Assembly (NCBI GenBank): GCA_964368135.1
Contig: CAYIZI010000001.1
Coordinates: 42,926-106,925 of the forward strand
Direction: 5' to 3'
Length of the DNA: 64,000 bases
Origin: an uncultured Candidatus Saccharibacteria bacterium
GTDB taxonomy: Bacteria > Patescibacteriota > Minisyncoccia > 2-02-FULL-40-12
The notes below the pieces were generated by a model, which saw only the letters and a program-made list of their open reading frames with translations, was not told the origin of the DNA and searched no databases. Position 1 is the stretch's first letter. Each line of letters begins with the position of its first letter. Below are positions 10,092 to 51,047 of the stretch, in pieces. Made by a program: the position numbers and the translations under genes.

Positions 10092-11053
10092 ATCAAATTC
10101 GGCGGTGTTTTCCCTTCCAGTGCCTCAATTATATTTTTCGCGGTCAGTTCGGCCATCTTATTTCTTGTTTCTTCGGTGGCCGAAGCAATGTGGGGAGTCA
10201 AAATTATGTTGTTTAATCTTAACAGCTCGGGCTCCACTTTAGGCTCGTTTTCAAAAACATCAATCGCCGCTCCGCGAATCCAGCCATCGCTCAAAGCCCT
10301 GGCTAAAGCTTTTTCATCTATCACCGGCCCTCGGGAAGTATTTACTAAATAAGACGTTCTCTTCATTGACTTTAACCGGTTCTCATTGATTAAGTGGCGA
10401 GTTGATTCAAGAAGCGGAACGTGCAAAGAAACATAATCGCATTGGGGCAGTAGATTATCAATATTATTAAAAAAACTGGCCCCAAATTCTTCTTCAAACT
10501 TCTCGTCCTGTTTTACGTCAGTGTATAAAACTTTCATTCCAAAACCTTTGACCGCATGATAAGCAACCCGCGAACCGATTCGGCCAAGCCCAACCACGCC
10601 CAAATTTTTACCAGACAAATCACTGCCGAGCATTAGCATCGGCCCCCAGGCCTGATACAATCCGGCTCGGGTAAATTTATCGGCTTCGGCAATGCGATGG
10701 CTTATTGCCAACATCAAAGCAAAGGTGTGCTCGGCTACGGTATCGGTCAAGACGCCGGGCGTATTAGTAACCATTATGTTTCTTGTTTTGGCCGCTTCTA
10801 AATCAATATTGTCAAAACCAACCGCCATATTGGCGATTATTTTCAGACTCGGCAAGCCGGCATCCATAACTTCTCCATCAATCTGGTCGGTTAAAACAGA
10901 AAGTAAAGCATCAGCCCCTTTAATGCCAACTAAAATTTCCTCTTTGTCTGCCGGTCGATCCCTTGCCTGTTCGTTAACTAAAATCTCATAGCCCTTGCCG
11001 CGCAGCATTTCCACTCCTGCCTCCGGAATTGGTCTGGTAATAAATATTTTCAT
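10088..11053 (-). CDS. D-isomer-specific 2-hydroxyacid dehydrogenase family protein (glyoxylate/hydroxypyruvate reductase or PGDH-like)
   Basis: NAD-binding GKNLGVVGLGRIGSRVA motif and the catalytic region ending ...TPHIASAT. Confidence 0.75.
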   Translation of the reverse strand: MKIFITRPIPEAGVEMLRGKGYEILVNEQARDRPADKEEILVGIKGADALLSVLTDQIDGEVMDAGLPSLKIIANMAVGFDNIDLEAAKTRNIMVTNTPGVLTDTVAEHTFALMLAISHRIAEADKFTRAGLYQAWGPMLMLGSDLSGKNLGVVGLGRIGSRVAYHAVKGFGMKVLYTDVKQDEKFEEEFGASFFNNIDNLLPQCDYVSLHVPLLESTRHLINENRLKSMKRTSYLVNTSRGPVIDEKALARALSDGWIRGAAIDVFENEPKVEPELLRLNNIILTPHIASATEETRNKMAELTAKNIIEALEGKTPPNLI

Positions 11054-13006: not shown

Positions 13007-14404
13007 ATGAAAAGGTACCTGCTGATAATCCTGGCTCTAAGTATTGCGACTCATTTCGCTTTTTTCGGCTATCCGCCAGAAACGGTCTTTGACGAAGTTC
13101 ACTTTGGGAAGTTTGTTTCCGGCTACTTTACCGGCGAATACTATTTTGACATTCATCCGCCGCTGGGAAAACTTATCATTGCCGGCATGGCTAAAATTTC
13201 GGGCTTTGAGCCGGGCTTTTCTTTTGAAACCATCGGCCAGGAATACCAGGATAACTCTTATAAATGGTTAAGATTTTTACCAAAACTTGCCGGTAGCCTA
13301 TTACCGGCAATTGCTTTCTTAATCGCATTGGAGTTAGGCATCAGCCAGAAATTCGCCTTTCTGGCCGGACTGCTGATTGTTTTTGAAAACTCATTACTTG
13401 TTCAGTCGCGTCTTATTCTACTTGACTCTTTTCTGCTTCTTTTTGGATTTTTAGGAATCCTTTTTTATCTTAAATTTAGAAAAACCGACGATCTAAAACC
13501 TAAAACCTATCCGGCTATCTGGCTTTTTCTTGCTGGTTTCTTCGCCGCCTTAGCCGCCTCAATAAAATGGACTGGCCTTGGCTTTCTGGCTTTAATGGGG
13601 ATTTTTTATTTTATCAATTTACTCAAATCCCCAGTAGCAGAACCTCGCAGACTCGGCTCACTACGGGGCACGGCAGAAGAAAAGTTAAAACTGGCACTTA
13701 AGGGCCTGGTGTTTTTAATAGTCATACCGTTTATGATTTACTTTTTAATTTTCGCTGTTCATTTTACCTTCCTTGATAAACCAGGGCCAGGTCTTGCCTT
13801 CCATCCGCCTAATTTTCAGGAAGATAATATTTTTAAAAAATTTGTTGAACTGAATACTGAACTTTATGCAAGCAATGCCCGGCTTACCGCCACTCATCCC
13901 TATTCCAGCCAGTGGTATGAGTGGCCGCTTATGATTCGCTCGGTTTTTTACTGGCAAGGAGACAACGAACGCATCTATCTTTTAGGCAATCCGCTGATTT
14001 ACTGGCTCTCAACAGTTGCCGTGATTTATTTTTTAGTTAACTTTTTCAAAAATAGAAAAAATTTCAGTTATTCGTCCCGATTCGCTTCCAGCGAATCGAG
14101 GATCCTCGATTTTCGTTTACGAAAATCGGGATTATTAGTTATCGGTTATTTGTTAAACTTATTGCCTTTCATCTTCATCGGCCGGGTGATGTTTCTGTAC
14201 CATTACTTCATCTCCCTGATTTTCGCGGTTTTAATTACGGCTTATTCACTGGATAAACTTGATTTTGAGCATAAAAAAACTGCCTTCAATGCAATTTTAG
14301 CTGGTTCAGTAGTTTTGTTTCTATTTTTCTCGCCATTGACTTACGGCTTCTCGATTCCAGAATGGTATTATAAGCTTTTAGTCTGGTTACCTTCTTGGAG
14401 ATAA
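13007..14404 (+). CDS. GT-C fold membrane glycosyltransferase, PMT/GT39-like (dolichyl-phosphate-mannose-protein mannosyltransferase family)
   Basis: Polytopic membrane protein with the first-loop motif DEVHFGKF...YYFDIHPPLGK typical of PMT-family transferases. Start taken at MKRYLL. Confidence 0.7.
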   Translation: MKRYLLIILALSIATHFAFFGYPPETVFDEVHFGKFVSGYFTGEYYFDIHPPLGKLIIAGMAKISGFEPGFSFETIGQEYQDNSYKWLRFLPKLAGSLLPAIAFLIALELGISQKFAFLAGLLIVFENSLLVQSRLILLDSFLLLFGFLGILFYLKFRKTDDLKPKTYPAIWLFLAGFFAALAASIKWTGLGFLALMGIFYFINLLKSPVAEPRRLGSLRGTAEEKLKLALKGLVFLIVIPFMIYFLIFAVHFTFLDKPGPGLAFHPPNFQEDNIFKKFVELNTELYASNARLTATHPYSSQWYEWPLMIRSVFYWQGDNERIYLLGNPLIYWLSTVAVIYFLVNFFKNRKNFSYSSRFASSESRILDFRLRKSGLLVIGYLLNLLPFIFIGRVMFLYHYFISLIFAVLITAYSLDKLDFEHKKTAFNAILAGSVVLFLFFSPLTYGFSIPEWYYKLLVWLPSWR

Positions 14405-14901: not shown

Positions 14902-16050
14902 ATGAGAACAGGAATTGCGAATTTTACTTTAGATTACGGAAAAGCCCCCCGGTGGCTGATTGAACGGATGGTAAAACTCGGCCGGATAATCGGCATTGCT
15001 ATTGTTGAAGAATTCGGAACCGAGGAATTCATAAAACGGCTGTCTGATCCGGTCTGGTTTCAGAGTCTTGGCTGTGTCCTTGCTTTTGACTGGAACGCAT
15101 CGGGTCTCACCACAACCACCATGGGCGCCCTAAAAGAGGCCTTTCGCGGACTTGAGCAAGAATTCGGCATTTATATTTGCGGCGGCAAAGGCAAAACCTC
15201 GCGCAAAACGCCTGATGAAATTTTTGATTGGGGATTAAAAATTGGGCTGGACGAAAACAAGGGTAAACGGTTGATTTTTGCTTCCAAAGCCGCGGCCAAA
15301 GTAGATAGTTCTCTGATTCAAGACGGTTTTCAAATCTATCACCATAATTTTATCTTCACTCATAACGGAAAATGGTCAGTAATCCAGCAAGGCATGAATA
15401 CAATTTGGCAAAAAGCCAGGCGCTACCACTGGTTCGGCGATTTAACTTTGTCTGATTTTGTGAACGAGCCTCATAGCGGTATCGCCAGTCAGGCAAAATT
15501 AAAACAGGTATTAAATCTAACCTCTGGCCATAGCGAGAAAAATAGAGTCATATCAACTCAATTGGTGGATGACCGGAAAAATTTAGTCAAAGATATTAAT
15601 CTTATCCAAACATTCTCAAACCCAACAGCTTCCCTTTTTGAAAATGATGGAGTAAAAATCCTCAACCTGACTGACAATGACTTTAGAACTCATCGGGTGG
15701 TAGATGAAAAAATCAATTTTGAATCGCCGCATCTCAAAAAAAGCTTTGATAAAATTTTCACCGAACAGCCAAAAACCTTTCAAGATTTAATGATGATCCG
15801 CGGCGTCGGGCCAAAAACTATTCGCGCCTTGTCTTTGGTCGCCGAAATAATCTATGGCGCCAAGCCCTCATACGAGGACCCGGCCCGCTACTCATTTGCC
15901 CATGGCGGCAAAGACCATATCCCCTACCCGGTTGACCGCCAGACTTATGACAAAACCATTGACATTATGGGGCGAGCCGTCAGAAACGCTAAGAATCTCT
16001 CCTCAAAAGAAAAAGACGGCGTCCAGCGCCGCCTTGCCCAGATAAATTGA
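14902..16050 (+). CDS. DUF763-like protein with a C-terminal helix-hairpin-helix motif
   Basis: The N-terminus MRTGIANFTLDYGKAPRWLIERM resembles DUF763 proteins as I recall them. The C-terminal IRGVGPKTIRAL is an HhH motif. Function unknown. Confidence 0.45.
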   Translation: MRTGIANFTLDYGKAPRWLIERMVKLGRIIGIAIVEEFGTEEFIKRLSDPVWFQSLGCVLAFDWNASGLTTTTMGALKEAFRGLEQEFGIYICGGKGKTSRKTPDEIFDWGLKIGLDENKGKRLIFASKAAAKVDSSLIQDGFQIYHHNFIFTHNGKWSVIQQGMNTIWQKARRYHWFGDLTLSDFVNEPHSGIASQAKLKQVLNLTSGHSEKNRVISTQLVDDRKNLVKDINLIQTFSNPTASLFENDGVKILNLTDNDFRTHRVVDEKINFESPHLKKSFDKIFTEQPKTFQDLMMIRGVGPKTIRALSLVAEIIYGAKPSYEDPARYSFAHGGKDHIPYPVDRQTYDKTIDIMGRAVRNAKNLSSKEKDGVQRRLAQIN

Positions 16051-16055
16051 GAGTT

Positions 16056-16813
16056 TCAAAGATTAATGAGCTTCTGGGCCAGCTTTCTCACCCCCTCTTT
16101 CCACAGAGCCGGTTCGGTCGTGTCAATGTCAGCCAGAAGATAAGCCGGCGGTTTTTTCAAAATCCACTTGCCGCCGCCTTCTCTGGACCAGCGATAATGG
16201 TGCGGCGTTCTCCGCCACATCTCCTTGAATTTAATCACTGCTCCTTTCTGCTGTCCCTTGCCTTCTTTCCAGGTGCTCTTTGCACCGCCGAAGAAATCTT
16301 CAGACGAATCTTCGTAAGAGGCTGAGAGCATTCGGCCCAACATCACTTCTGGATCAGTATAGGTTCGGATAAAGAAGAGTTCTGCTCCGGCCTTGGCGAC
16401 TTTTGCTTTCAAGCTGGCTCTTTTTTTCTCATCAGCAAAGTCAGCATCAAAAATGACATTGCCGCCCCGTTTCAAGATTTCAAGAGATACATTTTCGGCA
16501 ATCTGCCGGACATAGAGATACTTCTCGCCGACTTTTCGAAGCTGGACCCTGATCGCATCTCCTTCAATTACCACGCCGCCGATCCTCAAGCCAGCTCTTT
16601 GGCCACCGAGCTCTTGCCCGAACCGACAAGTCCCAAAAGAGCAACAACAACCCTGTTTTTGGTCTTGCGTTTGACAGGCCCAATATCAGACTGAACCTTG
16701 TTGATGAAGGCTTCTTGGGCCTTTTTTGCTTTAGCAGAGAGGGTTTCTTTCCTATGAACCATTACCTTCATGATAAAAGGCAGAATGGCCTCGGTCAATC
16801 TTCTAAACATCAC
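16056..16813 (-). pseudogene. P-loop (AAA-domain) kinase/ATPase gene interrupted by a frameshift
   Basis: The Walker A segment ...LLGLVGSGKSSVAKELA-stop (16586-16813) continues in another frame as GLRIGGVVIEGDAIR... (16056-16589). The two ORFs overlap by 4 nt, and together they give a ~250-aa kinase-like protein. Confidence 0.55.
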
Positions 16814-16936
16814 TCACCTCCGTATACGTATAAAAGTTTAAAACCAACCCAAACGAGCTAATTTAAAAATACCACGAAAAACTAAGAGTGTCAAAAACAA
16901 AAACTGCAAACATGAAACTTTAGCTTAAGGGCCGCA

Positions 16937-17137
16937 GGGTATAGCCAATTTCCGAGAGTTCGGCCGGAGCAGATACAAATAACCGAAGCGAGTAAAAATT
17001 TGCCGGTAACACAAAGTTGGTGGAGGATCCAATTTTGTCGGCAAATTTTAGTGAGTAAATTCTTATTTACGAACAATACTCGCTGAGGATTATTTGTCTG
17101 CGGAGGTTGCTTGAGGAAATTGGCTATACCCGAGAGC
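16937..17137. repeat. ~200-bp element bounded by perfect 17-bp terminal inverted repeats (GGGTATAGCCAATTTCC ... GGAAATTGGCTATACCC), with internal nested hairpins
   Basis: The terminal IRs were read directly (16937-16953 and 17115-17131) and each is followed by CGAGAG. The internal long hairpin AAAATTTGCCG...CGGCAAATTTT is at ~16996-17050. The element is non-coding and lies between the clpC 3' end and the kinase pseudogene 5' end. Confidence 0.6.
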
Positions 17138-17159
17138 CCTAATTGGATGTTTGCGGTTT

Positions 17160-19856
17160 TTAGTGCCTCATTTGCTCCTTAATCCTCACCTTGAAATTTT
17201 TATCGTAATCAATCTCAATGGCGCTGCCCCGCTCCGGTTCTTCTTTTAAAAGCAATTCCGAAATTCTATTCTCAATCTGCCGCTGAATCACCCGGCGAAG
17301 TTCCCTGGCCCCAAAATGCGGGTCATAACCCTCTTCAGCTAATTTTTTAATCGCTTGAGACGAAATATTTAGATTATAGCCGAGCATCTTCAGTTTCTCG
17401 GTCAGCTTTTCCAGCTGAAGAACAACAATCTTTTGAATCTGTTCTTTCTCAAGCGATTTAAAGACAATCACTTCGTCAAAACGATTCAAAAACTCAGGCC
17501 GGAAATAGGTCCTTAAATTGTTTACCAAAAGCTCGCGCAAAGATTCATAGCCCATTCGGTCGCTGTCGGACTTATCAAATTCGCGGTGAATTATATCAGA
17601 ACCGACATTAGAAGTGGCGATAATAATGGTGTTTGAAAAATCAACCTTGCGGCCCTGGCCGTCAGTCAAACGGCCGTCTTCCAAAACCTGAAGCAGAATA
17701 TTAAAAACATCGGGGTGGGCTTTTTCAATTTCATCCAGTAAAATTATTGAATGCGGACGGCGGCGGACAATTTCTGTCAGCTGTCCCCCTTCTTCGTAGC
17801 CGACATATCCGGGCGGCGCGCCGATTAAACGGGAAACATTGTGCTTTTCCATATATTCAGACATATCCAGGCGGGCCATTGCATTTTCATCGCCAAAAAG
17901 CACATTAGCCAAAGTCCGAACCATTTCGGTTTTGCCGACACCGGTCGGCCCAAGAAACAAAAACGAAGCAATCGGCCGGTGAACATCGCCCAATCCGGCC
18001 CGGCCCCGCCTGATTGCTTCAGCCACAGCCTTAACCGCCTCTTCCTGGTCAATTAACCGTTCGTGAATCCTATTTTCCAGATTCAGCAGCTTCTCCTTTT
18101 CGGCCTGGGTCAATTGAGTCACCGGAACTCCGGTCAGCTTAGAGACCACTTCCGCCACATTTTCAAAGGTAACTTCTGGGATAATCTTCGCTTTTTTATT
18201 TTCCCAGGTGTCAAGCTTCTCGGCTCTTTCTTTTTCCAATTCAACAAGTTCCTTTTCAATCAGCGACACTTTTTTGCTTTTAGAATGCTTGGCCGCATCA
18301 AGCTCTTTTTTCAGGCCGCGAATTTTTTCTTCAATTCTTTTCAGCTCATCCGGCTCGGTAGTGAACTTAATCCTGACTCGCGAGGCGGCCTGGTCAATTA
18401 AATCAATAGCTTTGTCCGGCAAGAAGCGGCCGGTGATGTAGCGATGCGAAAGTTCGGCCGCGCCGACAATGGCTTCATCAGAAATCTTAACCCGGTGATG
18501 CGACTCATAGCGGTCGCGTAAACCATGCAATATCTCCACGGTTTCGCCAACTGTCGGCTCACTGACATAAATCGGTTGGAAGCGACGCTCCAGAGCCGCA
18601 TCTTTCTCAATGTGCTTTTGGTACTCTTTCAAAGTGGTGGCGCCGACAATATGAAGCTCGCCCCGAGCCAAAGCCGGCTTAAACATATTAGCCGCGTCCA
18701 TTGCCCCGCCTTCAGCCCGGCCAGCACCGACAAGTAAATGCAATTCATCAATAAAAACAATCAACTTGTTGGAATTGGCAACTATTTCTTCCAAAACTGA
18801 CTTTAGCCGCTCTTCAAACTGGCCGCGAAACTGGGTGCCGGCTAAGATGCCGGACAAATCTAATTCAACCACTCTTTTACCTTGCAAGGGCTCGGGCACA
18901 TTTCCAGAAACGATTCTTTGGGCGAGCCCTTCAATAATGGCTGTTTTACCGACTCCGGGCTCGCCGATTAAAACCGGGTTGTTCTTGGTTCGGCGGGCCA
19001 AAACTTCAATTGCCGTTTCAATCTCTTTGTGCCGGCCAATAACCGGGTCTAACTTCCCTATTCTGGCAAGTTGGGTAAGGTCGCGGGAAAACTGATCCAA
19101 AGCAGGGGTCTGCATCATCGGAATAAAACCTTCTTTGGCTCCCCGGCCCACCGCCTTAACCACCGCGTTCCTTAGTTTCTCGTAATCAAGCTTTTGTTTC
19201 TTTAAAACACGAGCACCCAAACCCTCACCCTCCTGCATCAAAGCCAAAAGCAGATGTTCTGGACCGACATAGTTGTGGTGTAAATTTTGGGCTTCAGGCA
19301 AAGCAATATCCAGAATTCTTTTCATTCGCGGTGAAAACTCTAACTCGTCTTCAGCAGTCCCGCCCTTTTGAATACTTTTTTCAAGATTAGACCTGACTTC
19401 TGTTTCCGAAATTCTTAAATTATTCAAAATCTTTTTGATGACCTGGTCATTTATCAAAGCCAAAAGCAGGTGCTCGGTGTCAACTTCCGAACTGCCGAAA
19501 GCTTGAGCCTGACCGCCGGCCTCTCCTAAAATGTGCTTGGCTGATTCGGAAAGGTAATCCTGGACGTCAACTCTTTCCTGAACTCTTGGCTCGGCCTGAA
19601 ATATGTCGCCGAAAAAATCGCCGAAAATATCGTCGCCAAAAATACTGCCAAACCCAAACGGATCGCGCGGATCGCGGCCGCGACCGCTTGGTTTTTTAGG
19701 GCTATCTCCTTGCCCTGAACCTGCTGAACCGCCAAAACTAAAACTCACTCCTTTGGCAGAGCACTGGTCACAAACATTGGTCACCGACTGGACCCCATTA
19801 ACTATCTTAACCACTCGCCGTGTAGCAGAATTTTTCTTGCAAATATCACAGAGCAT
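17160..19856 (-). CDS. clpC: ATP-dependent Clp protease ATP-binding subunit ClpC-like (two AAA+ modules) with an N-terminal Cys4 zinc-ribbon extension
   Basis: NBD1 GEPGVGKT, NBD2 GPTGVGKT, Clp_N repeats and a short ClpC-type M-domain. An extra N-terminus CDICKKN...CDQC is followed by a Gly/Phe/Asp-rich linker. Confidence 0.8.
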   Translation of the reverse strand: MLCDICKKNSATRRVVKIVNGVQSVTNVCDQCSAKGVSFSFGGSAGSGQGDSPKKPSGRGRDPRDPFGFGSIFGDDIFGDFFGDIFQAEPRVQERVDVQDYLSESAKHILGEAGGQAQAFGSSEVDTEHLLLALINDQVIKKILNNLRISETEVRSNLEKSIQKGGTAEDELEFSPRMKRILDIALPEAQNLHHNYVGPEHLLLALMQEGEGLGARVLKKQKLDYEKLRNAVVKAVGRGAKEGFIPMMQTPALDQFSRDLTQLARIGKLDPVIGRHKEIETAIEVLARRTKNNPVLIGEPGVGKTAIIEGLAQRIVSGNVPEPLQGKRVVELDLSGILAGTQFRGQFEERLKSVLEEIVANSNKLIVFIDELHLLVGAGRAEGGAMDAANMFKPALARGELHIVGATTLKEYQKHIEKDAALERRFQPIYVSEPTVGETVEILHGLRDRYESHHRVKISDEAIVGAAELSHRYITGRFLPDKAIDLIDQAASRVRIKFTTEPDELKRIEEKIRGLKKELDAAKHSKSKKVSLIEKELVELEKERAEKLDTWENKKAKIIPEVTFENVAEVVSKLTGVPVTQLTQAEKEKLLNLENRIHERLIDQEEAVKAVAEAIRRGRAGLGDVHRPIASFLFLGPTGVGKTEMVRTLANVLFGDENAMARLDMSEYMEKHNVSRLIGAPPGYVGYEEGGQLTEIVRRRPHSIILLDEIEKAHPDVFNILLQVLEDGRLTDGQGRKVDFSNTIIIATSNVGSDIIHREFDKSDSDRMGYESLRELLVNNLRTYFRPEFLNRFDEVIVFKSLEKEQIQKIVVLQLEKLTEKLKMLGYNLNISSQAIKKLAEEGYDPHFGARELRRVIQRQIENRISELLLKEEPERGSAIEIDYDKNFKVRIKEQMRH

Positions 19857-19918: not shown

Positions 19919-20275
19919 CTACTTCATCGCAAATCCGCCGCCGATCAGTGCACCGACCATATTCATTTCAAGGGCAAAAACAGCCAAAGGCCAAACATCG
20001 TTAACGCCCATTGCCTTAACTACTCCCCATCCTAAAACTATTAATATTGCCCAAACCACACCAATCACAACTCCGCTCGAGAATGCTTTGCCCCAGCCCT
20101 GGCCTCCGTTTTGATAACCAACCCAAAGACCAAAAGCCAAAGCAATCAATGCCCAAGTGTCTACCGACATCATTGATTCCACTCCTTCAACATAGCTTAA
20201 AATAACCGCTACAACAGCAACTAAGACGGCTGCGGTAACAGGCACTCTCATCATTCCTCCCATATTTAGTTCCAA
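19919..20275 (-). CDS. Hypothetical small integral membrane protein (3-4 TM helices, Gly/Trp-rich)
   Basis: 118-aa hydrophobic ORF, visibly GC-richer than its surroundings. No known family. Confidence 0.4.
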   Translation of the reverse strand: MELNMGGMMRVPVTAAVLVAVVAVILSYVEGVESMMSVDTWALIALAFGLWVGYQNGGQGWGKAFSSGVVIGVVWAILIVLGWGVVKAMGVNDVWPLAVFALEMNMVGALIGGGFAMK

Positions 20276-22669: not shown

Positions 22670-22691
22670 CGGTTTTAATGATAACAGATTG

Positions 22692-22742
22692 CTCGGGTAT
22701 AGCCAATTTCTTTTCTGACTTTTTTAGACAAATAATCCTCAG
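22692..22742. repeat. Partial inverted-orientation copy of the right end of the 16937-17137 element (CTCGGGTATAGCCAATTTC - 15 nt - AGACAAATAATCCTCAG)
   Basis: Two conserved blocks, 19 and 17 nt, match the reverse complement of 17085-17137 in the same order and with similar spacing. The copy lies in the divergent promoter region between the ABC ATPase and the ClpP-like gene. Confidence 0.55.
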
Positions 22743-22831
22743 AGAGTATCCGGTTTTCGTTTTTTAAAAATTTTATTGACAAATACCTTAAATTATTTTA
22801 CTCTTTCCAAAGCTCAAAAGGAGGTGTAGTA

Positions 22832-23437
22832 ATGGAACCAAAGGAAGAAATAGCCAAAAAGTTGCTGGAAAGACGGATTTTAGTGATGACCGGCGAAATA
22901 ACCAAAGAGAAAGTTGATGAAGTGAGGAGTGGCCTGATATGGCTGAATGCCCTCTCCAATGACGAAATCAAACTGATCATTGACACAAAAGGAGGTGAAT
23001 GTGAGCCTGGGTTTTGGTTGGTAGATTTCGTCCAGATGCTTAGTGCTCCTGTTATAGGTATAGTGAACGGGGAATGTTACTCAATAGGCATCGCCATTCT
23101 CCAAGGATGCCGCAAGAGGCTGGCGACGCCCCATAGCTGGTTCCAAGTTCATTTCACCGGTGGCACCTTCAGGTACGCTCCCCGCGACGAGAAAAGAGAA
23201 AAGAAGTTTGAAATCAGATTGACACAGAGCCAAAAAGTCCAGGAACAGATGCTCCAACTTCTTTCCTCCAGAACCGGCAAAACTCCGAAGGAAATAATCG
23301 CTCTCTGTGAAAAAGGAGAGAAGTACGATTGGAGGTTTTCGGCCTCCGAAGCAAAGGAGCTGGGATTCGTTGACAAGGTAGTGGAAAAGTTCGAGTTATT
23401 TCCTGCTCCACCTTTGACAACACCGCCAACGCCTTAG
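22832..23437 (+). CDS. ClpP-family (S14) serine protease, atypical/possibly acquired copy
   Basis: Aligns to ClpP with the catalytic Ser (CYSIG), His (QVHFTGG) and Asp (KYDWRF) conserved. It is preceded by a strong SD (AAAGGAGGTG) and a TTGACA -35-like hexamer. Codon usage is visibly GC3-richer than the genome background. Confidence 0.7.
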   Translation: MEPKEEIAKKLLERRILVMTGEITKEKVDEVRSGLIWLNALSNDEIKLIIDTKGGECEPGFWLVDFVQMLSAPVIGIVNGECYSIGIAILQGCRKRLATPHSWFQVHFTGGTFRYAPRDEKREKKFEIRLTQSQKVQEQMLQLLSSRTGKTPKEIIALCEKGEKYDWRFSASEAKELGFVDKVVEKFELFPAPPLTTPPTP

Positions 23438-23459
23438 GGCCGCGGCGGTTTTTCGTTTT

Positions 23460-23717
23460 TTATTTATACAAATTCGGGTGAGTATCTAAAGCAATAAAGT
23501 ATGCAGTATTATCATCAACTAACTCATAAACCGCTCGATAATTTCCGGTAATATTAATACTGCGACAGCCTTTATACTTTCCAGTGAGTCCGTGATTATT
23601 CAAAATTGGATCAAACGGGTCTTTCGAAAATAAAACAAGTCGTTCATCGACTTTTTTCTGAATAGCTCGTAGTTTCTTAAACTTCTTCTTAAAATTTTGG
23701 TGAAAAAGAATTTTCAC
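23460..23717 (-). CDS. relE: Type II toxin, RelE/ParE (YafQ-like) family
   Basis: 85 aa; ...LTGKYKGCRSINITGNYRAVYEL...IALDTHPNLY is typical of RelE/YafQ toxins. It lies directly downstream of an antitoxin gene with a 1-nt gap. Confidence 0.7.
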   Translation of the reverse strand: MKILFHQNFKKKFKKLRAIQKKVDERLVLFSKDPFDPILNNHGLTGKYKGCRSINITGNYRAVYELVDDNTAYFIALDTHPNLYK

Positions 23718-23990
23718 TTACGAATGCAGGTAATCAAAGGCTTCTTCAATAGAATCAAAAACAGGAGAAATATTCTTCTTGGCTTTATAATCTTTTCTGG
23801 CCTGACCAATAAGCTTTTCTAATTCCGGAGTCATTTTAGGCATAACTGAAAAGTAAAGTCTTCGGCTTCTAATAAACTGTTTAAGGTTTGCATTTATAAT
23901 TGTACTTAAATTAAGACCTAATTCTTTGGCTAATTTTTGAGCATTCTCTTTAACTTCCTTATCTGCTTTTATATTGATCATCGTCTTCAT
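23718..23990 (-). CDS. relB: Type II antitoxin, RelB/DinJ family
   Basis: MKTMINIKADKEVKENAQKLAKELGLNLSTIINANLKQFI is a ribbon-helix-helix DinJ-like N-terminus. Start taken at 23990. Confidence 0.7.
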   Translation of the reverse strand: MKTMINIKADKEVKENAQKLAKELGLNLSTIINANLKQFIRSRRLYFSVMPKMTPELEKLIGQARKDYKAKKNISPVFDSIEEAFDYLHS

Positions 23991-24078
23991 CCCGTTAGAA
24001 ATTTTACAGACCGTCAACCACTCTAAGCTGGTAGCTAAACTTATAAAACTTCATATCACTTAATTTGTGTTTATTCCC

Positions 24079-46370: not shown

Positions 46371-49300
46371 TTACTTACTGATTATTGATAAAAACGCCTT
46401 GCTTGTTTTACTCCAGTCAAAATTACTGGCCCATTTTACTGCTTCCTGGCTCATCCGGTCGCGGAGATCCTTGTCTCGAATTATCGTTAAGATACTCTCC
46501 GCGAATGCATCGCTATTGCCGTAAGAAACAAGGCGGCCAGTTTCCATATTTTTCACAGAATCCCTTAAGCCCGGTACGTCAGAAGCCACTATCGGGGTGC
46601 CGCAAGCATTGGCTTCAATCGTGGTAATGCCCCACCCTTCCATAAACGAAGGATTTACAAATACCCAGGCTTTTTGAAAAAGTTCTATTTTCTCTTTTTC
46701 AGAAACCTTTCCTCTAAATACTACTTTGCCGTTAAGATTAAGTTCAGAGGCTAATCTTTTTAACGAATTTTCTTCTTCGCCGCTGCCGACAATGACCAAC
46801 CGGGCATCATCAACTTGTCTTATAACCTTTTCAAAAGCTCTTACTAAAACATCAACCGACTTATAGGCTTTAAGCCTTCCCAAATAAAGAATAGTCGGTT
46901 CCGGACTCTTTCTCCCAAGAGTTAAATTTTTAGAATTGACTCCGGGATGGACTATTTCAATTCCTTTCTTAGTTCCAAGGCCAAAACTCTGAATATCTTT
47001 TTTGCTTGATTCCGAAACCGTAATAAACTTTACATTCCGGTAGACTATGGGCATCAAATCCTTCTCTAAAAATATTGCCAGCTTTGCTAAGGGTTTAGGC
47101 AAAGAATGCCTGAAGACTTCCTGATGGATATGATGGATAAGACAATAAATCGGCTTCCTTGAATAGATGGGCGTAAAAAAAGGAATGCCGTTATGACAAT
47201 CAACTATGATGTCATATTTGCCTCTGAATTGGGTCAGGTAGTAAATAAAAGCCCAGAGGTAAACAAAGTAAAACCCGCCTCTTCTTATGATTTCAACCCC
47301 ATCTATAATTTCTCTTCTCTTTGAATAACTGTCATTGCCGCAAAAAACAGTGACCTGGTGTCCATCCTTGACCCACTGTTTGGCGATTTCGTGGACATAA
47401 AGTTCTGCTCCGCCACCATATATATGCCTTGTGTCTCTCCAGTTAAATATAAGAATCCTCTTGCCGAGCTTCGCCATCGGAGCCTCGGTTTCAATAGGTC
47501 TAAACGCATCTTTCAAATCAATAATGCCCCTCCAGACAAACTTAAGCCTGCCCTCAAGTACGTGGAATAAATAAACCAGGCCCAACCCAAAGATGCTGGC
47601 CCATAAAATAACATTGACTATCTCTTCGACGCTGCCGTGATTTAGGATTATGCCGATAGACATAAACAATGAAGCAGTCATTGAAATAATCGGGAATATA
47701 AATTGCCTTTTAGCCAAATGATAGACGACTATAGAATTTGAAATCGTGAAAACAGTAAGCGCGAGAGTGTAAATATTAAGATAAGGCAGAATGGCCAGCG
47801 TCTTGGAGCCAAAAAGTATCGGCACGGTTAAATTGCCCAGAGGGCCCAAAAAAATAAACCCGGCTAATGACAAAAGGACGGTTGAACCAACCAGCAGCTC
47901 AAATGTCTTTTTAGTATTTCTCTTTAATCCCTCGTCTCGGCCAATCAAAGTAATCATAAATATATTGGGCAGAGAGCCGAGAAAATATATCATCTTGCCG
48001 ACAAGCGATATTAGAGTGTACTCGCCGGCCAAACGCGGCGATAAAAAGTGTTTGACTAAAATAATGTCAATGCTTAAAAATATCGTCGCCGACATTAAAG
48101 TAAGTATTGAGGCGTAGAAAAACCTGCCCGGAAACTTATGGTTTTTAGTCTGAATAAAATCTTCAGAATGCCTTGAAACAGCCAAAACAGAAGCCATTGA
48201 AGCAACCGCTATGGATATCGGAATTGAAAGATAAACTAAATGATTTAACCCATACCAGGCGAAAAGAGCCGCCGCAATAAACTTACTTACTGATTCAAAA
48301 AGAATAACGAAAGCAACACTGGTAAAGTAAAGATTGCCATTAAGAAACCCCCTGTTTGCCGACGCAATCACTCCCAAAGTCAGAACCGGAGTGAACATAA
48401 AAAGGATGGACTGGCTGCTTATGTTAAAGAAATTAGAAAGGAATGAAACTGAAACTATCCACATTACCGATATGCCTAAGGCAATAGGAATTGCTTTGTT
48501 CAAAGTTGATTTGAGAAACGCAAGCGCCGACCCCTCACCCTTTTCAACGGCCAGATGAGCAGTCTTATGGTTTACCGTTGAGGAAACCGCGCCCATAAAT
48601 ATCGCCGCTACTGACCATAAAGTATTAACCAGTATCACTAGACTAAGTTCTTCAAAAGACAAAACCCTTCCCAGGAAAGCGTTAAAAAGAAAATTAAGGA
48701 AATTGGCGAACATCATCGCCGCAATCATAAGCGCCGCTCCCGAAAGAGCATTTTCGGTCAGCGATAACGGCAAAAATTTATTAGTGGTTTTTTTCAGCCA
48801 AGAATCTTTCTTTATAAAATTAAGAGTCAATTCAGGTTTCGGGGCCGGTCCCGATTTTATCGTCCCTAAAACAGGTAAGGGTTTTAATTTCTTTAAATGC
48901 AGGCCGTGCTTGGTCTTTTCCCAGAAATGCGGCTTAATGAAAAGCTGGTAAGTTGCCATTACCGCGGCAATACTCATAAAGAACCAATAGAAAGGTATTA
49001 AAAAGACATATTTTATTATTGGCCAGTGGCCCCTTTTGGCACAGCCGATCATGTAATAGTAAAAATAGAGAAAATTCCCGAAGACCAGAGAAAAAACGGC
49101 GATATAAAAGACCGGGGTCGGATATATTGATTCTATGGTCGGACCGACAACGGAACGCAGGGCGAAATAAGAGATCGTCATAAACCACAAAATTGGATTT
49201 ATAAGCATAAAGACAATTTTGCCGCCGATGTTAAGCTGGAAAAGAAAAGTATGGATGCCGCTTTTTTTCAAAAATTCCATCGGCTTTCTCATATGAACCA

Positions 49301-51047
49301 GATATGTCTGCATATAGCCCTTAATCCACCTTGACCTCTGCCTTATCCAGTTCCAAACCTGACTATTTGCTTCTTCAAGAGTTATTGAATCAATAATCGC
49401 CGTGTTGAAACCCTGTTTAAATAACCGCACCCCCAAGTCGGCGTCTTCGGTAACGTTGAAGGGATCCCAACCCTTAAGATTCCTTAAGTCGGCGGTCCGG
49501 AAATGGTTGCTGGTGCCGCCAAGAGGAATTGAAGTATTAATTGACTGAAGACCCGGCAGAATGATTTCAAACCACAACGAGTACTCGGCCGTAAAAAGCC
49601 GGGTCAAAAGATTTTGATTGGTGTTATAATAATTGAGTTTTGCCTGAAGACATTTAACTTTTTCTGGCACTCTTTGAAAAGCCAAATAAGCTTTCTTAAG
49701 CTGCTGGGGTTCGGGCATATCTTCGGCGTCGTAAACGACAAGATACTCACCCTTGGCTGAATTAAGACCATAATTGCAGGCCTTGGGCTTGGTCTTAGGC
49801 AAAGAGTGAGGAACGATTACTATCCTTACGTAGCTTGGCAAATCTATTGACCTGGCAGTATCTATTGTCTCTAAGTCGTTTTCTTCTAAAAGCAGCTGGA
49901 CATCCAATTTATCCTTAGGCCACTCCAATTTGCTTATTGAATTTAAAAATTTTGGAAGAACCGCTGATTCCCGATAAAGCGGGCAGAGAATCGCATAAAC
50001 CGGCAGAGAACTTTCGTCTATCCGGGAAAGTTCCTCATCAGTAAAACTAAGTTCCGGAGGATTATGCAGACTTTTTGTGATAAGGAATAAATTAAACAAA
50101 ACGTCAAAAAAGTATAGAGAGCTTAAAACAGCCATTAAAGCTATGGCCGTATAGAGCGGGAAAAATAAAAATCCGGCAACAGCCAAAATAACGGATAGAA
50201 ATATTAAAAATTTCTGGCTGGCGGTAAATGTGATTAGGGCCGAGGTTTCACTGTCAAGATTAGAATGAGTAATGAACCTTCTGCCTTTATGGGCCATTCC
50301 GGCGCCGATCATACTTGATTCGTCTTGCGGCGGTATTTGAATCGGCTTTTTCTTTTTTAACTTGTTGGCCAACGCGTTAGTGCCTATTTCCCAACTGGCT
50401 TTTATGACATTGATTTTTGATTCACCGGAATGCCTCTTTTCAAAATCTATATTAACGGTGGCTATTTCATGGCCGGCGTATCTGGCGTTAACCAAGAATT
50501 CCAGATCAAAGGTCCACTGGGACGGATTAACTGCTATTTCCTTGGTTATCTGTTTTTTAAAAACTTTTAACCCTGACTGGACATCGCACTTAAGCCCGTG
50601 AAGAATCCGGCCAAAAACAAAATTAAAACCTTTGCTGGCCAGCTTTCTTAAGGGGCTTATGCCTTTATAACGTCTATTGGCCACAACTACGCCGGCGCCA
50701 TCTCTAATTTTTCTCACCATTTCCGGTATCGCTTCCGGCGGGTACTGCAGGTCAGCGTCAATCATCCCGACAGTGTCATACTTGGCATAATCAAAACCCT
50801 CAAGAATAGAAAAGGCCTTACCCTTTTTGCCTTTCTTCAAATGACAACTAATTGGATATTCGTCGGCCAGATTATTGGCAATCTTAACCGTATTATCGGT
50901 TGAGTGGTCATCTATTGTGACTATTTCATACTCAATACCGCCTTTTTTTAAAGCATTATCAATCCTCTTGACTAACTTCTGGATATTTCCTTCTTCATTA
51001 AAAGTAGGAATAATTATTGATACTTTTTCAGTGTTTTTGGCCTCCAT
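46371..51047 (-). CDS. 1558-aa multidomain glycan-synthesis fusion protein: DPM1-like GT2 + processive QxxRW GT2 + multi-TM flippase-like block + GT4
   Basis: aa 1-230 IIIPTFNEEGN...DADLQYPPE (DPM1/GtrB-like GT2). aa ~340-600 YDAEDMP, TEDADLG and QRSRW (cellulose-synthase/NodC-like). aa ~760-1170 give about 12 predicted TM helices. The C-terminal ~380 aa ...EGWGITTIEANACGTPIVASDVPG is GT4. It is one uninterrupted ORF. Confidence 0.8.
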   Translation of the reverse strand: MEAKNTEKVSIIIPTFNEEGNIQKLVKRIDNALKKGGIEYEIVTIDDHSTDNTVKIANNLADEYPISCHLKKGKKGKAFSILEGFDYAKYDTVGMIDADLQYPPEAIPEMVRKIRDGAGVVVANRRYKGISPLRKLASKGFNFVFGRILHGLKCDVQSGLKVFKKQITKEIAVNPSQWTFDLEFLVNARYAGHEIATVNIDFEKRHSGESKINVIKASWEIGTNALANKLKKKKPIQIPPQDESSMIGAGMAHKGRRFITHSNLDSETSALITFTASQKFLIFLSVILAVAGFLFFPLYTAIALMAVLSSLYFFDVLFNLFLITKSLHNPPELSFTDEELSRIDESSLPVYAILCPLYRESAVLPKFLNSISKLEWPKDKLDVQLLLEENDLETIDTARSIDLPSYVRIVIVPHSLPKTKPKACNYGLNSAKGEYLVVYDAEDMPEPQQLKKAYLAFQRVPEKVKCLQAKLNYYNTNQNLLTRLFTAEYSLWFEIILPGLQSINTSIPLGGTSNHFRTADLRNLKGWDPFNVTEDADLGVRLFKQGFNTAIIDSITLEEANSQVWNWIRQRSRWIKGYMQTYLVHMRKPMEFLKKSGIHTFLFQLNIGGKIVFMLINPILWFMTISYFALRSVVGPTIESIYPTPVFYIAVFSLVFGNFLYFYYYMIGCAKRGHWPIIKYVFLIPFYWFFMSIAAVMATYQLFIKPHFWEKTKHGLHLKKLKPLPVLGTIKSGPAPKPELTLNFIKKDSWLKKTTNKFLPLSLTENALSGAALMIAAMMFANFLNFLFNAFLGRVLSFEELSLVILVNTLWSVAAIFMGAVSSTVNHKTAHLAVEKGEGSALAFLKSTLNKAIPIALGISVMWIVSVSFLSNFFNISSQSILFMFTPVLTLGVIASANRGFLNGNLYFTSVAFVILFESVSKFIAAALFAWYGLNHLVYLSIPISIAVASMASVLAVSRHSEDFIQTKNHKFPGRFFYASILTLMSATIFLSIDIILVKHFLSPRLAGEYTLISLVGKMIYFLGSLPNIFMITLIGRDEGLKRNTKKTFELLVGSTVLLSLAGFIFLGPLGNLTVPILFGSKTLAILPYLNIYTLALTVFTISNSIVVYHLAKRQFIFPIISMTASLFMSIGIILNHGSVEEIVNVILWASIFGLGLVYLFHVLEGRLKFVWRGIIDLKDAFRPIETEAPMAKLGKRILIFNWRDTRHIYGGGAELYVHEIAKQWVKDGHQVTVFCGNDSYSKRREIIDGVEIIRRGGFYFVYLWAFIYYLTQFRGKYDIIVDCHNGIPFFTPIYSRKPIYCLIHHIHQEVFRHSLPKPLAKLAIFLEKDLMPIVYRNVKFITVSESSKKDIQSFGLGTKKGIEIVHPGVNSKNLTLGRKSPEPTILYLGRLKAYKSVDVLVRAFEKVIRQVDDARLVIVGSGEEENSLKRLASELNLNGKVVFRGKVSEKEKIELFQKAWVFVNPSFMEGWGITTIEANACGTPIVASDVPGLRDSVKNMETGRLVSYGNSDAFAESILTIIRDKDLRDRMSQEAVKWASNFDWSKTSKAFLSIISK

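Follow-up and report, generated by a model that had tools for sequence, protein, structure and literature searches.

A foldback hairpin downstream of clpC and a candidate REPIN/MITE-like repeat family in Parcubacteria-like (CPR) groundwater bacteria

The hairpin between clpC and a split kinase gene

The window analysed here is a stretch of 64,000 nucleotides inside a 126,877-bp contig from a Hainich groundwater metagenome (well H51, 0.1 µm fraction). Relatives of the ClpC protein of the window organism are labelled Parcubacteria or Patescibacteria. The element under study is placed between the 3' end of clpC (17160–19856, minus strand) and a small kinase gene, also on the minus strand. This small gene encodes an AAA_33-like P-loop kinase and carries a frameshift just past the P-loop, which splits it into 16586–16813 and 16056–16589 (minus strand); it shares 78% identity with its orthologue in a related contig (L249). 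In L249, the orthologous AAA_33 gene is preceded by the same promoter sequence (TTGACACTCTTA...TTTCGTGGTAT) as the kinase gene of the window. The features of the locus, and of a second site in the same window, are as follows; A5 denotes the alignment of the five short-type sequences described below, and helices are numbered as in that fold.

16866–16894, minus strand: sigma-70-like promoter of the split kinase gene (TTGACA-17-TGnTATTTT); abuts the hairpin and is context, outside the repeat
16897–16913, plus strand: left half of the outermost A-rich stem, AAAAACTGCAAACAT; pairs with 17147–17161 (inverted repeat 93% complementary, folds)
16925–16936, plus strand: family-typical outer stem TTAAGGGC and 5' internal-loop motif CGCA; other copies have AAAGCC-CGCA or AAAGCG-CGAG just 5' of GGGTATAGCC
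16937–16953, plus strand: 5' arm (terminal inverted repeat) GGGTATAGCCAATTTCC, an exact match; its core GGGTATAGCC is conserved in the arms of all copies
16975–16984, plus strand: 5' strand of the invariant helix, ACAAATAACC; pairs with 17087–17097 (helix 4, invariant in 5/5 short-type copies)
16994–17049, plus strand: apical hairpin (helices 6 and 7); the UUGCCG/CGGCAA helix is invariant and the upper helix (17011–17020/17029–17038) covaries
17021–17028, plus strand: G-rich terminal loop UGGAGGAU, capping the apical hairpin
17055–17070, plus strand: side hairpin GTAAAT-TCTT-ATTTAC (helix 8) on the 3' arm, forming a three-way junction outside the main palindrome
17083–17099, plus strand: invariant block 2, CTGAGGATTATTTGTCT, 3' strand of the invariant helix; invariant in A5, with a reverse-complement copy at 22726–22742
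17115–17131, plus strand: 3' arm GGAAATTGGCTATACCC, exact reverse complement of the 5' arm
17132–17142, plus strand: 3' internal-loop motif GAGA and outer stem GCCCTAA; other copies have GAG(AG)-GCTTT directly 3' of GGCTATACCC
17147–17163, plus strand: right half of the outermost stem, ATGTTTGCGGTTTTT; it and the stop codon of clpC (17160–19856, minus strand) overlap
22688–22758, plus-strand coordinates, reverse-complement orientation: apparent truncated remnant, corresponding to the 3' third of another short-type copy (arm, block 2 and start of the side hairpin)

An earlier note on this DNA had described a ~200-bp element with perfect 17-bp terminal inverted repeats and nested internal pairing. 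The terminal repeats are indeed exact (16937–16953 and 17115–17131), and both nested pairs are present, i.e. AAAATTTGCCG/CGGCAAATTTT (16995–17005/17039–17049) and AGCGAGTA/TACTCGCT (16987–16994/17077–17084). The size given holds for the core, but pairing goes past these borders: arm pairing stretches to 16928–16953/17115–17140, and an outer stem joins 16899–16913 with 17147–17161. The whole hairpin therefore measures ~265 nt (16897–17163), and the canonical repeat unit (~16925–17142) lies inside it. The plus strand has a folding energy of −126.3 kcal/mol, compared to −73.1 ± 4.8 kcal/mol in shuffles (z −11.1), and the minus strand has a folding energy of −105.2 kcal/mol (z −8.5); no shuffle was as stable. 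Judged by fold energy against shuffles, the pairing of the hairpin is not a product of chance.

The segment had also been described as free of open reading frames. A 61-aa frame with a TTG start (16891–17076, minus strand) exists mechanically and is the sole ORF in the element, but nothing supports it as a gene and we regard it as spurious. Two further candidates were rejected: (i) a small ORF after the GGAGG loop, because its length is unconserved (7, 10 or 17 codons) and compensatory changes in the stem would alter its amino acids; and (ii) a K-turn reading of the CGCA/GAGAG loop, because the GA placement is unsuitable.

Database searches place the element in no described family. Rfam, with families such as 6S, SRP, ribozymes and OMEGA/HEARO, gives no match at the gathering score anywhere in the window; for 16700–17300 there is none even at E ≤ 10. 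A tRNA/tmRNA scan also found nothing. Phage and plasmid collections searched with blastn contain no match; in viral contigs the two-arm pattern does not occur, and a 14-mer scan gave single, presumably chance, matches. Literature searches retrieved no interspersed palindromic repeat family of such a kind described for CPR bacteria. This is consistent with the earlier suggestion that the element is undescribed.

Copies, interior types and sites of the repeat family

Further copies, for which the earlier note had suggested looking, occur in related Parcubacteria-like genomes. The family comprises ~15 full copies and several fragments in eight contig sets: three copies in L014 (CAYHZG010000019), one in L086 (CAYHZG010000008), two in L122/L124, two in L125, one in L126, two in L247, three in L249 and one in L251. 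The arms of the L247 copies have drifted, and one of the three L249 copies is degenerate. Copies were found by a 16-mer scan, a two-arm pattern scan, inspection of the neighbourhoods of ClpC orthologues, and searches with nhmmer profiles and with a covariance model. Among the matches listed from the exact 16-mer scan (one-genome-per-species contigs), most are chance, such as that in L068 (57% GC coding DNA), and the real ones are L014 and L086. The two-arm pattern scan gave four loci in metagenomes. Related contigs include CAYHYT010000015 (GCA_964361065.1), VMGG01000015 (GCA_007376425.1) and JACQLM010000007 (GCA_016204105.1).

Copy density varies among these genomes. The window contains exactly three arms, i.e. 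one full copy and one fragment, and the total is the same over the 74 kb of this genome that were examined, since the 10 kb more of its contig (L252) contain no copies. Elsewhere there are two or three copies per 8–16 kb (L014, L122, L247 and L249). No copies were found in L120/L121, whose ClpC is 83% identical (22.7 kb of L120 covered), or in the more distant, lower-GC relatives L254–L256.

Family members are 200–300 bp long and share the ends ..AAAGC-CGCA-GGGTATAGCCAATTTC ... GAAATTGGCTATACCC-GAGAG-GCTTT... Every copy contains a basal module that consists of an outer stem (AAAGC/GCTTT), an asymmetric purine-rich internal loop (CGCA or GCGAG opposite GAG(AG)) and an arm helix. The arm is 10–16 bp, GGGTATAGCC(AATTTC), and the arm helix reads GGGUAUAGCC(AAUUUC) as RNA. 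Behind the same arms there are at least three unrelated types of interior. The short type (window, L014 copy 1, both L125 copies, L251 and L247) contains the invariant helices ACAAAUAACC/GGAUUAUUUGU and UUUGCCG/CGGCAAA, a covarying upper helix with a G-rich loop (UGGAGGAU and variants) and the side hairpin. The long type (L014 copies 2 and 3, L126, L249 and L247) contains a second stacked module (GCA-GGGnnUAU/AUAnnCCC-GAGAG) and the same apical hairpin. This hairpin is common to both types: covariance-model positions 24–74 match L126, L014, L249 and L247. Other interiors are present in L122/L124, and a further kind in L086/L249.

The copy most similar to that of the window lies upstream of dnaE in L014, where positions 1473–1671 are 99% identical to window positions 16933–17131 (199 bp) and the flanks are wholly unrelated. 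The interiors of these two copies are 100% identical and their outer stems differ; the outermost A-rich stem of the window is outside the common block, and the clpC-side half of that stem is kept directly past the clpC stop in L249. L014 copies 2 and 3 are more diverged, with the ends ..CGAAAAGCC-CGCA-GGGTATAGCC ... GGCTATACCC-GAGAG-GCTTTTCG.. and the same apical hairpin. L123 is the same MAG contig as L014 and was also recovered from Hainich H51. The window and L014 share no genes, and their tetranucleotide signature does not tell one genome from two. The 99% identity breaks off exactly at the arms, within the canonical outer stem. Such a block is explained as well by gene conversion from arm to arm as by transposition of a GGG...CCC unit into a hairpin-like target.

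The second site in the window is a divergent intergenic region that separates an ABC ATPase gene (minus strand) from a ClpP-like gene (22832–23437, plus strand). Two blocks of the hairpin were earlier said to recur there with conserved spacing. Both recur exactly: the 19-nt block CTCGGGTATAGCCAATTTC, reverse complement of 17116–17134, at 22692–22710, and the 17-nt block AGACAAATAATCCTCAG, reverse complement of 17083–17099, at 22726–22742. The spacing is only nearly conserved (16 nt in the element vs 15 nt at the second site) and the spacer sequences are unrelated. The similarity runs longer than the blocks, over 22688–22758: with the family profile, nhmmer aligns model positions 151–215 to 22750–22688 (E 1.8e-9), and the likeness can be followed by eye to ~22758. 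Both blocks are constant across all short-type copies of A5. In the spacer (TTTTCTGAC...) and in the sequence that continues beyond (AGAGAGTATCCGGTT..), the site is closer to the L125/L251 subtype than to the window's own full copy. Because the shared blocks are family-invariant and the rest is L125/L251-like, we read 22688–22758, from its sequence, as the broken, truncated remnant of a different short-type copy, and not as the partial duplicate of the window element that had been supposed. It would be a dead copy. At the corresponding position upstream of the ABC ATPase gene, L249 has a full copy and L122 has remnants, and in L120 topA directly abuts the ABC gene.

The recurrence of the two blocks also raises the possibility of a cis-regulatory operator or promoter module shared by stress-protease genes (clpC, the kinase and the ClpP-like gene), with one regulator acting at the two blocks. 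The blocks do have nearly conserved spacing, and at both sites they precede a gene in the same orientation. Read on the minus strand, the arm at the second site also provides the ABC ATPase gene with a −35-like TTGGCT, and positions 22714–22730 form a weak direct repeat of CtsR type with 3 mismatches. However, this direct repeat falls in the non-shared spacer of the second site, and no CtsR, CIRCE or HAIR operator was found in 16800–17250 or in the shared blocks. At the first site the blocks are ~270 nt from the kinase gene, whose own promoter intervenes. Moreover, in relatives the same blocks, which are the invariant segments of the whole family, lie in both orientations beside dnaE, secY, L25, RmuC, PMT and other genes. 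In the two cases in the window the blocks do, taken literally, face the 5' end of the adjacent gene, but orientation is mixed across the family. The operator reading is thus largely refuted by the family distribution and we give it hardly any weight; a promoter module is essentially excluded.

The copies have housekeeping genes as neighbours (dnaE, secY, mreB, L25 and fpg), with RmuC and PMT also represented, and copies occur in either orientation, which is mixed relative to the neighbouring genes. The position directly after clpC is occupied by a short-type copy in the window, by a different interior type in L122/L124 and in L249 by a decayed orthologue, which has the post-stop AAAAACCGCAAACA and the kinase promoter downstream in common with the window. 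Other relatives have no copy there: the glutaredoxin gene is directly next in L120/L121 and L251, a 107-aa ORF and then the glutaredoxin gene follow in L247, and DUF763 is next in L254/L256. The grx–PMT spacer and the region upstream of the ABC ATPase gene likewise have a copy in some genomes and lack one in others. Copies nested inside outer arms occur in L125, L122 and L086, and there are solo arms too. No precise empty site was recovered among the orthologous sites, which were compared among strongly diverged genomes; the clpC–DUF763 spacers of L254 and L256, considered as empty sites, hold an unrelated hairpin or no spacer at all.

These positions bear on whether the hairpin is in the first place a host structure, a long bidirectional intrinsic terminator or RNA-stability hairpin that separates clpC from the following gene, with similar copies elsewhere retained because they end or stabilise the transcripts beside them. 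Its base is flanked by runs of A and U (AAAAAC...GGTTTTT in the window and CGAAAAGCC...GGCTTTTCG in most copies), and T5 comes after the stem on both strands. The stop codon of clpC (window, L122 and L249) or of dnaE (L014) is adjoined or overlapped by a copy, and the following gene has its own promoter immediately past the hairpin. A simple terminator scan, however, did not call the hairpin, and ~100-bp stems with conserved internal loops and 16-nt invariant arms far exceed what termination needs. Some copies are located in divergent promoter regions (L014 copy 1 and the L249 long copy), and there are relatives with no element at the same site. A primary terminator role is therefore improbable in our judgement. 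Because of the A-/U-runs at the hairpin base and the overlap with the clpC stop, a host terminator role in addition to repeat identity is possible.

The variable gene content beside both sites also suggests recombination sites of the integron attC type, marking gene cassettes. The copies are indeed imperfect palindromes that fold strand-specifically and vary in the centre. At both sites in the window, the element adjoins segments that are missing from L120 (the kinase segment at the first; the ClpP-like gene and a toxin–antitoxin pair at the second), and the identity block shared with L014 is bounded exactly by the arms. But the element ends contain no attC core sites (GTTRRRY/RYYYAAC), the length of 200–300 bp compares with 57–141 bp for attC, copies are scattered singly among housekeeping genes and not in arrays, and no integrase was found in the 74 kb examined. 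We consider an attC-like identity very improbable and essentially excluded.

The earlier note had suggested, as one of two readings, a MITE-like mobile family with terminal inverted repeats. Membership of a repeat family with conserved terminal repeats agrees with this, but neither a consistent target-site duplication nor a partner transposase was found. The flanks of 10 copies were inspected for duplications and reveal isolated direct repeats only, i.e. GAGCGAA (L014 copy 1), GGATTG (L014 copy 3) and TAA; all are ambiguous, and the first two may belong to the element consensus. The searches found no transposase, RAYT or integrase in the 64-kb window and 10 kb more of its contig, no transposase or RAYT beside any copy, and no Y1_Tnp match among the window ORFs or in the Pfam annotation of the compared loci. 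The CRISPR repeats beside Cas1 in relatives are unrelated to the arms and absent from the window.

Covariation, strand preference and conservation of the fold

Changes in the stems are compensatory. In A5, 95.5% of cells are paired and 16 of the 75 pairs are changed on both sides; shuffles give 8.8 ± 1.8 both-side changes (0/500 reach 16) and slid partners give 1–4. The long-type alignment (A4) behaves similarly, with 14/73 covarying pairs. The covariation that the earlier note had proposed to look for is thus present. It extends to the side hairpin (helix 8), where half of the 8 pairs are changed on both sides, giving five stem versions, and the loop is conserved (UCUU in four of the five copies, UCUG in L247).

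One strand folds better than the other throughout. All 13 folded copies are more stable, by 7.7–26 kcal/mol, in the same element orientation, and the consensus folds of the favoured and the other strand have energies of −84.2 vs −72.6 and −68.5 vs −60.7. The favoured strand has 30 G-U cells vs 7 A-C cells, and the covariance model scores 123 bits on the plus strand vs 21 bits on the minus strand. An energy-independent arm-against-arm count (65:39) gives a weaker strand preference. Interiors are 77–85% identical between genomes, which is approximately the level of clpC DNA (77%), and in an L247 copy the interior is better kept than the arms, which have drifted and still pair. Because the stems covary and one strand always folds better, we infer that a single-stranded form, either ssDNA or RNA, is under selection. 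This lends some support to the structured element that had been suggested as an alternative to a mobile repeat. Interiors conserved at about the level of clpC DNA are also more suggestive of a functional structured molecule than of a selfish MITE.

A possible explanation is that the copies are multi-copy structured non-coding RNA genes or cis-acting RNA domains that arose via duplication or recombination, not transposition. The favoured strand would then be transcribed and the function would reside in the fold, i.e. in a basal protein-binding module, the invariant helices and the G-rich GGAGG apical loop. Besides the covariation (including that of the side hairpin outside the palindrome), the consistent strand asymmetry and the conservation of interiors close to that of coding DNA, this agrees with two invariant helices and with unpaired blocks that are invariant across genomes (AUUUUAGUGAG in 4/5 copies, CGAA in all and the UCUU loop in 4/5), as well as with the L247 copy that keeps its interior while its arms drift. 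However, no copy has a conserved promoter upstream of the favoured strand, orientation relative to flanking transcription is mixed and no Rfam family matches. At least three unrelated interiors behind the same arms are hard to square with one RNA function, nested and truncated copies with presence or absence at orthologous sites are typical of selfish repeats, and the close relative L120 has no copies in 22 kb. We regard RNA genes or domains of this kind as the main rival explanation, yet a rather unlikely one.

Relation to known repeats and proposed identity

We compared the family with three groups of known bacterial repeats. Published REPINs have two invariant 16-mers at inverted ends and form a hairpin with compensatory changes; their clusters result from insertion into existing copies, their singlets decay and folding is proposed in ssDNA or mRNA (PMC3116915). 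The CPR family resembles these RAYT-mobilised elements in its invariant 16-nt blocks inverted at the ends, compensatory changes, extragenic location and non-autonomous nature, and likewise in its predicted ssDNA or mRNA folding, its clusters formed via insertion into or next to copies and its decaying singlets. It differs in that (i) it is two to three times longer (200–300 bp) and has conserved, branched interiors of several types; (ii) its arm GGGTATAGCCAATTTC cannot fold on itself, has no 5' GTAG motif and is not a REP-type palindrome; and (iii) no RAYT gene was found in the sequence examined and copy density is low in the window genome.

Prokaryotic MITEs are 50 to 800 bp long (PMC11602168), are intergenic, can insert into one another and can be terminators or RNase targets (PMC10969869). 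Like MITEs of the Correia/NEMIS and ERIC kinds, the CPR elements are small and non-coding with terminal inverted repeats (exact 17-nt arms), lie between genes in either orientation with a copy number that varies between relatives, and, as transcribed copies, could be terminators or RNase targets. The whole-length imperfect palindrome and the size variants through internal insertions are reminiscent of ERIC. By contrast, they have no consistent target-site duplication, no cognate IS or transposase was found, they have no sequence likeness to described families and their host belongs to the CPR. The pneumococcal BOX, RUP and SPRITE repeats offer a further parallel in modularity (a common basal module with alternative interiors), nested clusters and terminator-like flanks, but sequence and host are unrelated, and BOX modules are arranged in tandem whereas the CPR modules are stacked helices of one hairpin. 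In anatomy, the family appears to match published REPINs most closely, with a likeness also to ERIC- and Correia-type MITEs.

Taken together, the element is probably a full-length copy of a lineage-restricted, non-autonomous, REPIN/MITE-like foldback interspersed repeat family of a small groundwater Parcubacteria-like (CPR) clade. The family is apparently undescribed and new for CPR bacteria, yet it belongs to a familiar class of bacterial repeat. As such a repeat it would be DNA that depends for its spread on an enzyme acting in trans, the gene of which does not lie nearby, with a folded single strand as the functional intermediate, as proposed for REPINs and IS200/IS605-type elements. Alternatively, copies may spread when the conserved arms recombine with one another. 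In places where a copy and its neighbours share a transcript (here at the clpC 3' end), the ~100-bp hairpin with its A-/U-runs could act as a bidirectional terminator or RNA-stability element.

A bolder proposal, which we put forward tentatively and hold to be possible but short of probable, is that the family is no ordinary cut-and-paste MITE but represents a new class of structured single-strand CPR element, either a hairpin-dependent ssDNA mobile element or a multi-copy structured RNA, whose fold purifying selection would maintain about as strictly as protein-coding DNA. In its ssDNA version, a putative and possibly non-RAYT enzyme would target, or exchange at, the base of the arms; exchange at the arm bases would predict cleavage at GCA|GGG and CCC|GAG. 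In its RNA version, the common basal module (the CGCA/GAGAG loop and the GGGUAUAGCC helix) would bind a protein, and a Shine–Dalgarno-like GGAGG would be exposed in the apical loop.

Genomes of CPR/Patescibacteria are very small and, to our knowledge, few mobile or repetitive elements have been recognised in them. A foldback repeat family of the proposed REPIN/MITE-like kind would provide a marker of genome plasticity in variable gene islands, such as those after clpC and before the ABC transporter genes. Given the 99% identical copy on a second H51 contig, it is also a possible marker of exchange between co-occurring groundwater populations. Repeats of this kind call for caution in the assembly and binning of such MAGs, and they offer a lead to a mobilising enzyme or an RNA-binding partner. 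Should the fold act as RNA, a little-explored phylum would have yielded a new class of structured RNA.

Gene content between clpC and the glutaredoxin gene

The stretch that separates clpC from the glutaredoxin gene was compared between the window and the corresponding contig loci of relatives (L120, L122, L247, L249, L251, L254 and L256). This interval is a variable island, with the following contents:

Window, 14902-17160: foldback repeat, split kinase gene and DUF763 gene
L120 and L251: empty
L254 and L256: DUF763 gene, alone or with one more ORF
L247: 107-aa ORF
L122: small genes of nucleotidyltransferase/kinase/DUF2283 type

The split gene beside the repeat in the window is as follows:

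16056-16813, minus strand: AAA_33-like P-loop kinase, broken by a frameshift into overlapping ORFs of 75 aa and 177 aa

The frameshift lies directly past the P-loop (GLVGSGKSS). The L249 orthologue is 78% identical and its N-terminal part is likewise missing; the L122 homologue is intact (207 aa). The window kinase is probably a gene in decay. Also, an 18-nt part of the foldback repeat (17090-17107) reads ACCUCCGCAGACAAAUAA in the minus-strand RNA and shows 78% complementarity to the ribosome-binding region of the downstream kinase gene (16816-16833), a match that could represent anti-Shine-Dalgarno pairing or a coincidence.

The ClpP-like segment and the repeat fragment

A truncated repeat fragment lies between the ABC ATPase gene and a segment with three ORFs:

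Within 22832-24017: ClpP-like gene, 201 aa
23460-23717, minus strand: YafQ/ParE-like toxin
Within 22832-24017: 99-aa ORF adjoining the toxin gene

The whole segment (22832-24017) is placed between the topA and ABC transporter genes, and in L120 the ABC ATPase gene directly adjoins topA. It looks like an inserted island with the repeat fragment at its border.

On the minus strand at 22678-22706, a -35-like TTGGCT from the repeat arm (the conserved terminal inverted repeat) is followed after 17 nt by TATCAT, which ends only 8 nt ahead of the start codon of the ABC ATPase gene; in L249, the -10 and start region (CAATCTGTTATCATT) is kept. This stretch could be a repeat-derived promoter that yields a nearly leaderless ABC ATPase transcript. 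Two weak CtsR-box-like heptad direct repeats were also observed: GGGCAAAAACAGCCAAA (19972-19988, plus strand, 2 mismatches), ∼120 nt upstream of clpC, and TGTCTAAAAAAGTCAGA (22714-22730, minus strand, 3 mismatches), upstream of the ClpP-like gene. Because no CtsR homologue was seen, both may be chance matches.

Further loci, and repeat copies in relatives

Further loci were recorded in relatives and in the window:

L247 50-3480 and L122 4470-7710, between a PD-(D/E)XK nuclease gene and clpC: compact CRISPR-Cas locus
Window 46371-51047, minus strand: 1558-aa fusion protein with two GT2 domains and a GT4 glycosyltransferase domain

The CRISPR-Cas locus encodes Cas1 (broken into two ORFs in the case of L122) and an unannotated protein of 505-530 aa, and is flanked by two arrays, one per side and in opposite orientations, with a CRISPR repeat of ∼36 nt (GTTCATCCCACCC..GATGCATCAGAGAGTTGAAC). 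It is absent from the window, where the corresponding place holds only a 118-aa ORF and no CRISPR repeat remnants. The GT2/GT4 fusion gene lies within a long cluster of glycan and dTDP-sugar genes at about 38.7-51 kb.

A diversity-generating-retroelement-like pair (reverse transcriptase fragment and bAvd) occupies L251 1-1055, ∼3 kb from the L251 repeat copy; no link between this pair and the foldback repeat is evident. L122 carries two family copies (10800-11025 and 13905-14160) that are ∼95% identical, are inverted relative to each other and enclose a 2.9-kb segment in which the glutaredoxin gene lies together with the small variable genes. Such an inverted pair could promote inversion.
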